A DNA stretch of 64,000 nucleotides from Syntrophorhabdaceae bacterium (GCA_963666485.2 CAXXUO010000002.1:576001-640000); one strand, 5' to 3'; counted from the first letter of the stretch, positions 24,269-25,463 are shown. Notes: generated by a model not told the origin, from the sequence alone. Made by a program: numbers and translations.

Positions 24269-24294
24269 AAAAAGCAAAACCTTGTATGATACTC

Positions 24295-24480
24295 CCCGTG
24301 GAATATCACGAACAATCCATGATAGAAAAGAGAAAAAGGTTGCCGGTGTGGCAGGCCGTAAAAACCAGGGGATGATATCCCGTATCCAAGCTCGGGCCGC
24401 CACACCTTCTCCTTATAAACCCGGACAGTTGCAGGGGACTCGCAGGAGATCCCGCATTGCACAAGGAAGGGACACGGGAA
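24295..24480 (+). ncRNA. Predicted IS110 bridge RNA (target- and donor-binding loops); ends approximate
   Basis: Stem ggtgtggc/gccacacc encloses aaaacc and atccaag, which match the target. A second loop has acagttgc and acaag, which match the donor junction. Confidence 0.8.
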
Positions 24481-24494
24481 AAAGGGGTGATATC

Positions 24495-25430
24495 ATGGAC
24501 GACGTCTTCATCGGGATCGACATATCGAAAGAGCATTGTGACCTCGCGGTCATACCGGGCGGCACGCAGAAGAGGTTTACAAACGACGAGGAGGGCCACG
24601 AGGCGATCCTTGCCTTCGTACTTCCTCTCAACCCTTCCCGCATCGTCATCGAGGCGTCGGGAGGATACGAGATGGGAGCAGTGCGTACCCTGGCGGACGG
24701 CAAGCTTCCTGTTGTAGCGGTCAATCCCCGGCAGGTGAGGGACTTCGCGAAGGCGACAGGCAGGCTCGCAAAGACGGACACGATAGATGCAGGTGTCCTC
24801 GCGCAGTTCGCAAAGGCCATCGAGCCGGAGATACGGCCGCTTCCGGAGAAAGATGCCGAGGTGCTCCGTGCCCTCGTTGCCCGCAGGAGGCAGCTCATCC
24901 AGATGCTGACGATGGAGAAGAACCGCCTCGAGAAAGCGCCCGCTGCCGGAAGCGAGGATATCCGGAACCACATATACTATCTCACCGAGGCCTTGAAGAA
25001 GATCGACAAGGACATCTCGCGGACGATCAGGAAAAGCCCCCTGTGGAAGGAGAAGGAGACGATCCTCATGAGCATGCCCGGGGTCGGTCCCGTTATCTCC
25101 TGTAATCTCATCGCAGCCCTTCCCGAACTGGGGACACTGAACCGCAAGGCCATCGCGGCCCTTGTCGGGCTCGCCCCCTTCAACAGGGACAGCGGCAGAT
25201 ACCGGGGAACACGGACCATATGGGGAGGCAGGTCTCATGTCAGGGCCATACTGTATATGGGGACCATCAGCGCGATCAAGTTCAATCCTGCCATCGGGGC
25301 CTTCTATAAACGGCTCGTCGAAGCGGGAAAGGCCAAGAAAGTTGCGATTACTGCCTGCATGAGGAAGCTTTTGACCATTCTGAATACCATGATGAAGAAC
25401 AAGACAACGTGGATCGAGGTCACCTCGTGA
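24495..25430 (+). CDS. IS110 DEDD recombinase/transposase
   Basis: GIDISK, VIEASG, KTDTID, PGVG, RDSG (Tnp Ser), ACMRKL; start ATG 24495 after AGGGG. Confidence 0.95.
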
Positions 25431-25463
25431 AGAAGAAATCAGTTGACATCGAACACAGTTGCT

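Follow-up and report, generated by a model that had tools for sequence, protein, structure and literature searches.

Gene and features of the locus

We analysed a window of 64,000 nucleotides from a Syntrophorhabdaceae bacterium (the window being this whole stretch of DNA), in which an earlier note had pointed out an IS110 bridge-recombinase element at 24281..25463; all the motifs named there were found in place. The element consists of a left end of 214 nt, a gene for a 311-aa DEDD/Ser recombinase and a right end of 33 nt, with a CT core at both junctions:

24281..24282, plus strand: left copy of the CT core dinucleotide, the crossover site (from motif position and all copies)
about 24483-24488, plus strand: purine-rich RBS of the recombinase gene, predicted from sequence
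24495..25430, plus strand: recombinase gene, 311 aa, with a RuvC-like DEDD domain (D9, E53, D95, D98) and a Tnp domain with S233
25462..25463, plus strand: right copy of the CT core (from motif position and all copies)

The ORF matched the Pfam families PF01548 (N-terminal RuvC-like DEDD domain, 2e-26) and PF02371 (C-terminal Tnp domain, 4.7e-19), both above the curated cut-offs, and scored 239.5 bits on the NCBIfam equivalog NF033542 'IS110 family RNA-guided transposase', for which the cut-off is 140. A phmmer search against solved structures returned ISCro4 (PDB 9t56, E 4e-38) and IS621 (8wt6, E 1.8e-35), over residues 5-302. In the alignment to 8wt6, D9, E53, D95, D98 and S233 stood opposite D11, E60, D102, D105 and S241, which are the catalytic residues of IS621 (Hiraizumi et al. 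2024, PMC11208158), and the motifs GID, IEA, TDxxD and SG aligned with these residues. By homology, the product of ORF 24495-25430 is an IS110-family recombinase. The element had been described as an intact orthologue of IS621; the ORF is indeed intact and the family is right, but the protein is a distant family member and not a close orthologue.

The CT core was present at both junctions in all copies of the element, and a dinucleotide core without further target duplication is one of the marks of the IS110 group. The left ends of the relatives described below likewise begin CT/TGTAT. Of the 51 inverted pairs in the element, the 25 longest include no terminal inverted repeat. Judged by its long left end, its short right end and the lack of a terminal inverted repeat, the layout is that of the IS110 group and not of IS1111.

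A conserved two-loop RNA structure in the left end

The left end contains two predicted RNA modules:

24345..24406, plus strand: target-binding loop module, with an outer stem 24345-52/24399-406, an inner stem GGCC 24354-57/24395-98 and an internal loop with a central hairpin
24369..24381, plus strand: central hairpin of the target-binding loop, GGGAU-GAU-AUCCC (from the MFE fold and the covariation alignment)
24420..24471, plus strand: donor-binding loop module, with a closing stem CCC 24420-22/GGG 24469-71 and a central hairpin at about 24435-24453

The strands of the outer target-loop stem are GGTGTGGC (24345-52) and GCCACACC (24399-406). Folding the left end and building a covariance model had been proposed as a check on the element. 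The MFE fold of 24291-24494 gave the first stem, the internal loop and the inner hairpin, and the covariance model of the family's left-end RNA found five loci in the genome, exactly those of the five copies of the element. The single-sequence fold energy of the left end was unexceptional (z = -1.23).

Relatives were sought in 401 genomes of the same phylum at E <= 1e-40, which gave 20 genomes besides this one and 25 loci (L011-L035) with 33-60% protein identity (tblastn). At 22 of the 25 loci a donor-guide motif lay upstream of the gene, and these together with the window copy made 23 rows, aligned over both modules, in which the relatives had about 44-60% protein identity. The guide table does not include L020, L029 and L030, in which the pattern found no left donor guide, while L017, L032 and L034, being second copies or close variants of L031, L018 and L025, were dropped from the unique-element counts and from the alignment.

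RNAalifold on the resulting 20 sequences gave 26 consensus pairs, 18 of them with compensatory changes; in the target-binding loop, 8/9 outer-stem pairs and 3/4 inner-stem pairs showed such changes. The consensus pairs were formed in 93.8% of cells, as against 35-47% when the partner was slid by 1-3 columns. The 18 compensatory pairs compare with 3-8 in the slid controls and a mean of 9.9 in shuffled alignments, and the covariation score of 0.427 with 0.08-0.12 slid and 0.206 shuffled, neither observed value being reached by any of 500 shuffles. Helix 6, of two pairs (columns 119-120 with 159-160), joins the two donor guides and was regarded as spurious. According to this alignment, the left end has a conserved, covarying two-loop RNA structure. 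Rfam contains no family that matches the RNA strand of the left end; the only hit, to sX15, was below threshold and on the opposite strand. Read on the minus strand, the central hairpin at 24369-24381 resembles a terminator, with a T-run after the hairpin that comes from the A-rich left target guide; the resemblance is probably incidental.

Guide loops match the flanks and ends of the element

Left guides are reported to pair with the bottom strand and right guides with the top strand, core included, and pairing with both bases of the core is reported to be strongly favoured (Durrant et al. 2024, PMC11208160). The concept and the positions of the handshake guides are those of Hiraizumi et al. 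(PMC11208158). Read accordingly, the predicted guides and the donor halves are as follows:

24283..24287, plus strand: right donor half (RD) tgtat, with which the element begins (from motif position and the guide table)
24359..24366, plus strand: left target guide (LTG) UAAAAACC, in the sense of the target's top strand and so pairing with the bottom strand
24384..24390, plus strand: right target guide (RTG) AUCCAAG, the exact reverse complement of CT+TGGAT
24391..24391, plus strand: candidate target-loop handshake guide C, which could pair with G, the last left-donor base, after strand exchange
24425..24432, plus strand: left donor guide (LDG) ACAGUUGC (DNA ACAGTTGC), equal to the left donor half acagttg plus core C
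24461..24466, plus strand: right donor guide ACAAG (24461-65, reverse complement of CTTGT) and candidate handshake G (24466), which could pair with LT position 7 (C)
25455..25461, plus strand: left donor half (LD) acagttg, with which the element ends (from motif position and the copies)

The left junction reads gcaaaac (24274-80)-CT (24281-82)-tgtat (24283-87) and the right junction acagttg (25455-61)-CT (25462-63)-tggat (25464-68). The earlier note had reconstructed from this locus a target gcaaaac-CT-tggat and a donor acagttg-CT-tgtat, with the guides aaaacc, atccaag, acagttgc and acaag in the left end. The four guides are present where it had placed them, and the target is borne out by the other copies, at 5/5 left and 4/4 right junctions. 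When the left end was shuffled 200,000 times by mononucleotides, both target-guide strings turned up in 0.16% of the shuffles, and no shuffle contained all four guide strings.

AAAACC at 24361-66 equals the left target plus core C, so that LTG matches AAAAC and core C over 6 nt, or over 7 nt at sites with an A before AAAAC. A complementarity of just 6-7 nt between LTG and LT counts against the bridge-RNA reading, and so does the next base of LTG, A (24367) where U is expected, which does not match the second core base T; the position after the core C of LTG is U in 15/23 aligned rows and A in three (window, L011, L014).

The relatives allowed guides to be compared with cognate and non-cognate DNA. 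RTG was Watson-Crick complementary to its own core and RT at 5/5 positions in 12/16 unique elements and at 4/5 in the other four, two of which have G-U wobbles. Against non-cognate flanks the mean was 1.27/5, and 5/5 was reached in 0.8% of 240 comparisons, because two rows share a target. For LTG the mean match to LT was 5.36/7 cognate and 3.30/7 non-cognate, the cognate value being lowered by four loci with a one-base register shift. LDG covaries with the right end in the relatives, as ACGGTTG in L018/L032 and ACAGTCG in L019, L021 and L033. The base after RTG is C in all rows, opposite G, the last donor base, in 18/18 elements; this pair is invariant and is therefore simply consistent with handshake pairing. 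The base after the right donor guide pairs with LT7 in 18/19 elements, including U:A in L011 and A:T in L032, the exception being L018. Across these alignments, the guide loops change in step with each relative's own flanks and ends. We are highly confident that window 24281-25463 is an autonomous IS110-group insertion sequence, moved by bridge-RNA-guided recombination, which has been demonstrated by experiment for IS621.

Copies of the element occupy one edge of a REP-like repeat

The 3.77-Mb genome has four full copies of the element, 100% identical over all 1183 bp, and a fifth copy that is truncated after element position 401 (99% identity). A protein search of the genome returned the same five places as the DNA search. 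The flanks of the full copies are unrelated beyond the repeat described below, which indicates independent insertions. The ORF is intact, and the element has apparently been active recently. In the truncated copy (L005:1900-2130, contig C4, own genome), a different kind of repeat, some 45 nt long (taagttacttactttcttaaggacgtcccc...), follows element position 401 in three copies. Its bridge-RNA locus is intact and scored 111 bits; the donor-loop hairpin carries a small insertion, and a single base is substituted in the linker that leads up to the donor loop.

Two features flank the window copy:

24274..24280, plus strand: left target half (LT) gcaaaac, of which the last five bases, AAAAC, are common to 5/5 insertion sites
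25464..25493, plus strand: REP-like repeat TGGAT-CCCGGTG-TCAAG-CACCGGG-ATGACG, of which the first five bases are the right target half (RT)

Other copies had been expected at aaacCTtgg(a/g)t in REPs. The left junctions read AAAAC/CT in 5/5 copies (four full and one truncated) and the right junctions CT/TGGATCCCGG-loop-CCGGGATGACG in 4/4 full copies, that is, at the 5' shoulder of a REP-like hairpin. The proposal that the element has been retargeted to a different REP class is supported, since 5/5 left and 4/4 right junctions lie in a REP-like repeat of another class than that of IS621.

The repeat is a short GC-rich palindrome in many copies, that of the window lying between convergent ORFs. 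With the hairpin pattern GGAT[CT]CCGG-N3-12-CCGG[GA]ATGAC, 162 copies were counted in the genome; a looser hairpin pattern, which treats some imperfect repeats in another way, gave 164. Loop and 5' shoulder both vary between the subfamilies of the repeat: there are at least three loop types (TGTCAAGC 54, CCTTC 39 and CAA 39, over all contigs of this genome) and distinct shoulders (AAAACCTT as against AAAGAC-N-CT), and some copies form tandem clusters with a spacing of about 43-100 bp. The name REP used in the earlier note fits a many-copy GC-rich palindrome. Its other mark, association with a RAYT (Y1 transposase, PF01797), failed to appear, there being 0 matches in this genome (99.14% complete) with positive control genomes, so 'REP-like' is the safer name.

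There are 42 CTTGGAT[CT]CCGG sites in the genome, of which 27 are empty with AAAAC in front, 11 have one mismatch in those five bases and four are occupied right junctions. As judged from these counts, the element fits only the repeat subfamily with the CTTGGAT shoulder, that is, 42 sites as against 164 repeat copies by the looser hairpin pattern. All 27 empty AAAACCTTGGAT sites fall in the REP-like repeat, each with a hairpin after it, and all of them lie outside the 64-kb window. Unoccupied CTtggat sites had been noted within the window near 358, 10473 and 43175; these are real repeat copies with CTTGGAT, but each is one mismatch away from AAAAC, the left halves at 358, 10473 and 43170-76 (minus strand) being tagaac, aagac and caaac. 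Five of five insertions at perfect sites, with 32 perfect and 11 one-mismatch sites available, has a chance probability of (32/43)^5, about 0.23, which is not significant, and discrimination between the two kinds of site was dropped as a claim because the numbers are too small.

Just downstream of the repeat, between the element and the convergent gene, the window has 12 tandem heptamers CGCCGTT (25541-25625, 87% matches). Similar heptamer runs appeared as loose ends beside other copies of the repeat and, by eye, near the targets of relatives L016, L018 and L025.

RNA pairing could be one part of the specificity, with the hairpin to the right of the crossover as a second structural determinant read by the recombinase; this would add to bridge-RNA guiding and not replace it, and we consider it possible but hold it tentatively. 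The hairpin begins inside RT at 4/4 right junctions and at 27/27 perfect empty sites, relatives L012, L022 and L031 also insert immediately 5' of a hairpin (by eye), LTG is short and imperfect at the core, and a stem-loop gate has been described for ISPpu10 (bioRxiv 10.64898/2026.03.19.712850). On the other hand, relatives such as L013, L014 and L035 insert without an obvious hairpin (by eye), the loop varies at one occupied site (CTCTTCG in the C5 copy as against TGTCAAGC elsewhere), and the ISPpu10 stem-loop is a 5' extension whereas the hairpin here is on the 3' side. Moreover, the co-occurrence of target and hairpin is forced: the 12-bp target never occurs outside the repeat in this genome, so that RNA pairing is inseparable from hairpin recognition. 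The stricter form, in which target choice needs both the 12-13-bp RNA match and a REP hairpin beginning inside RT, as an RT-side stem-loop gate that mirrors the 5' gate of ISPpu10, we regard as doubtful. If such a dual requirement were true, the failure of LTG to match the second core base might be harmless, or even of use, and the clade would be a compact, more specific natural variant of bridge recombination.

The opposite strand and the leader

On the minus strand, window 24336-24456 scored 30.1 bits on Rfam RF02234 (sX15), for which the gathering score is 55. Such sub-threshold hits (29-32 bits) opposite the bridge-RNA strand occurred in the window and in L022, L023 and L027, the latter being three of the 15 relative loci scanned. 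Conversely, the covariance model built from the elements of this phylum hit the Xanthomonas plasmid pXCV183 (L036:1888-2028, minus strand; record 116387-116527 minus) with 56.8 bits (E 6e-13), exactly under sX15 (116378-116536, plus strand) and directly before a truncated IS110-like start (..GIGIDV..). Because the model hits under sX15, on the opposite strand and before an IS110-like start, RF02234 appears to be a model of the strand antisense to an IS110 bridge RNA. The complementary transcript asX7, detected by Northern blot, would then be the bridge-RNA strand. The titles and abstract openings of the papers retrieved on sX15 in Xanthomonas contain no link to IS110.

In the 5' leader, TCCATGATA (24316-24324) is perfectly complementary to TATCATGGA (24491-24499) across the recombinase start codon, a 9-nt match reached in 0/300 shuffles. 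This pairing might occlude translation in a long transcript. A conserved role was rejected, since the pairing is strong in the window and comparable in only 2/14 relatives (L025, L026).

These observations bear on a purely regulatory reading, according to which the left-end structure is a 5' UTR or an antisense-RNA target that controls recombinase expression while the protein itself chooses the site. Besides the 9-nt leader match, it can draw on sX15, an experimentally detected Xanthomonas sRNA antisense to a homologous leader, and on ISPpu9, which is reported to be regulated by sRNAs and 5'-UTR structure (PMC8450116); the leaders of ISPpu9 were formerly seen in this way. Nevertheless, it is very improbable, since it does not explain loop sequences that track each element's own flanks and ends, and its start-codon complementarity is not conserved (3/15 elements at <=5/300 shuffles); regulation is in any case compatible with guiding. 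Equally far-fetched is a relic, with immobile copies carried along as larger segments were duplicated and the target match being a historical footprint, which would suit the copy truncated at element position 401 but not an intact ORF with all catalytic residues or four full copies identical over 1183 bp in flanks wholly different beyond the repeat.

A predicted split promoter and the proposed cycle

The two ends of the element contain the halves of a putative promoter:

24285..24290, plus strand: -10 half TATGAT of a predicted split sigma-70 promoter, completed only in the circle (TATNNT at the same place in 17/19 left ends)
25443..25448, plus strand: -35 half TTGACA of the same predicted promoter, 13 nt ahead of the core (hexamer of at least 5/6 in register in 16/18 right ends)

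The TATNNT motif sits 2 nt after the core in those 17/19 left ends. A joining of TTGACA and TATGAT at 17 bp on circularisation had been predicted, and the spacing across the joined ends is indeed 13 + 2 (core) + 2. The putative split promoter TTGACA-17-TATGAT is conserved across the relatives, and a promoter split across the RE-LE junction of the circle is on record (Durrant et al., PMC11208160). In the integrated state, a promoter scan found none in front of the RNA; its only returns were a 9/12 match whose end falls on the start codon and one, on the opposite strand, within the gene. Four public runs of one sample contain the whole element as contigs; among the assembled contigs of runs X1 and X3 that include it, there were no joints. 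The single raw-read run under this species label (X23) contributed 0 reads and carries no weight either way, RNA runs shared 4-8% of the sampled words, and X5, a metagenome run with a small share, covered part of the stretch.

The cycle that we propose takes circle formation, transcription, the RNA-protein complex and the chemistry from the IS621 literature. The element would excise as a double-stranded circle, as IS621 does, whose junction would bring the right-end TTGACA and the left-end TATGAT to 17 bp and so create a promoter. This promoter would transcribe the left end from about 24297, and probably the recombinase mRNA too. The first 180 nt or so of the transcript are predicted to fold into the two internal-loop modules, of which the donor-binding loop would read the circle junction through ACAGUUGC and ACAAG. 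The site read would be (A)AAAAC-CT-TGGAT, which forms the 5' shoulder in one of the subfamilies of the REP-like repeat of the host, and the DEDD/Ser recombinase (D9, E53, D95, D98, S233) would exchange strands at the CT core. With such a target, the element would land in harmless intergenic DNA that is present in dozens of copies.

Comparison with known systems

The mechanism, REP targeting and guide-target covariation are already published, and in the NCBI family model such proteins are already called RNA-guided. IS110 elements have been known to target REPs since 2003-2006 (Choi 2003; Tobes & Pareja 2006, PMC1525189), and the RNA basis and large-scale guide-target covariation were published in 2024 (Durrant et al., PMC11208160). 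What is specific here, as read from the genome, is the target (A)AAAAC-CT-TGGAT, the repeat family, the seven-base right guide and the non-match at the second core base. The finding leaves the known mechanism unchanged. It contributes one recombinase/bridge-RNA pair with clean limits, which seems to have been active recently and belongs to a lineage far from that of IS621; as an orthologue, the element is a candidate for experimental tests. For bridge-RNA design, the guides and targets of some 20 relatives, legible directly in their genomes, offer natural training or benchmark data.

A close parallel is IS621 of E. coli, with which the element shares the two-domain DEDD/Ser recombinase, the CT core and a long left end with target- and donor-binding loops (PMC11208160, PMC11208158). 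The same-sense LTG and LDG, the antisense RTG and RDG that include the core, the handshake positions, the promoter split across the RE-LE junction and the insertion into a REP element are also as described for IS621, and the donor halves acagttg/tgtat fit its layout. It differs from IS621 in its distant sequence (phmmer E 1.8e-35), in its target AAAAC-CT-TGGAT at the edge of a different repeat, and in an RTG that would pair with seven contiguous bases, whereas the wild-type RTG of IS621 is reported to pair with 4 bp (PMC11208160). Further, LTG here has no match to the second core base, and the element here is known from sequence alone.

ISPpu10 and ISPpu9 of Pseudomonas putida are likewise IS110-family elements with specific insertion into many-copy REP sequences (Tobes & Pareja 2006, PMC1525189), and ISPpu10 has a target stem-loop beside the RNA-matched bases (bioRxiv 10.64898/2026.03.19.712850). 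The host and the repeat differ from those of ISPpu10/ISPpu9, and the hairpin here is on the right (RT) side, its role being that of a candidate only.

By protein alignment only, the ISCro4 bridge recombinase (PDB 9t56) is the best match among solved structures (E 4e-38, residues 5-302). In the IS1111 group, the guide RNA lies downstream of the gene. The seekRNA elements of this group share with our element the DEDD type of transposase and RNA-guided site choice (Siddiquee et al. 2024, PMC11187229), and the group is described as having subterminal inverted repeats, which the IS110 type is without (PMC11187229). In contrast to the IS1111 group, the predicted RNA here lies upstream of the gene, and there is no terminal inverted repeat among its 25 longest inverted pairs.
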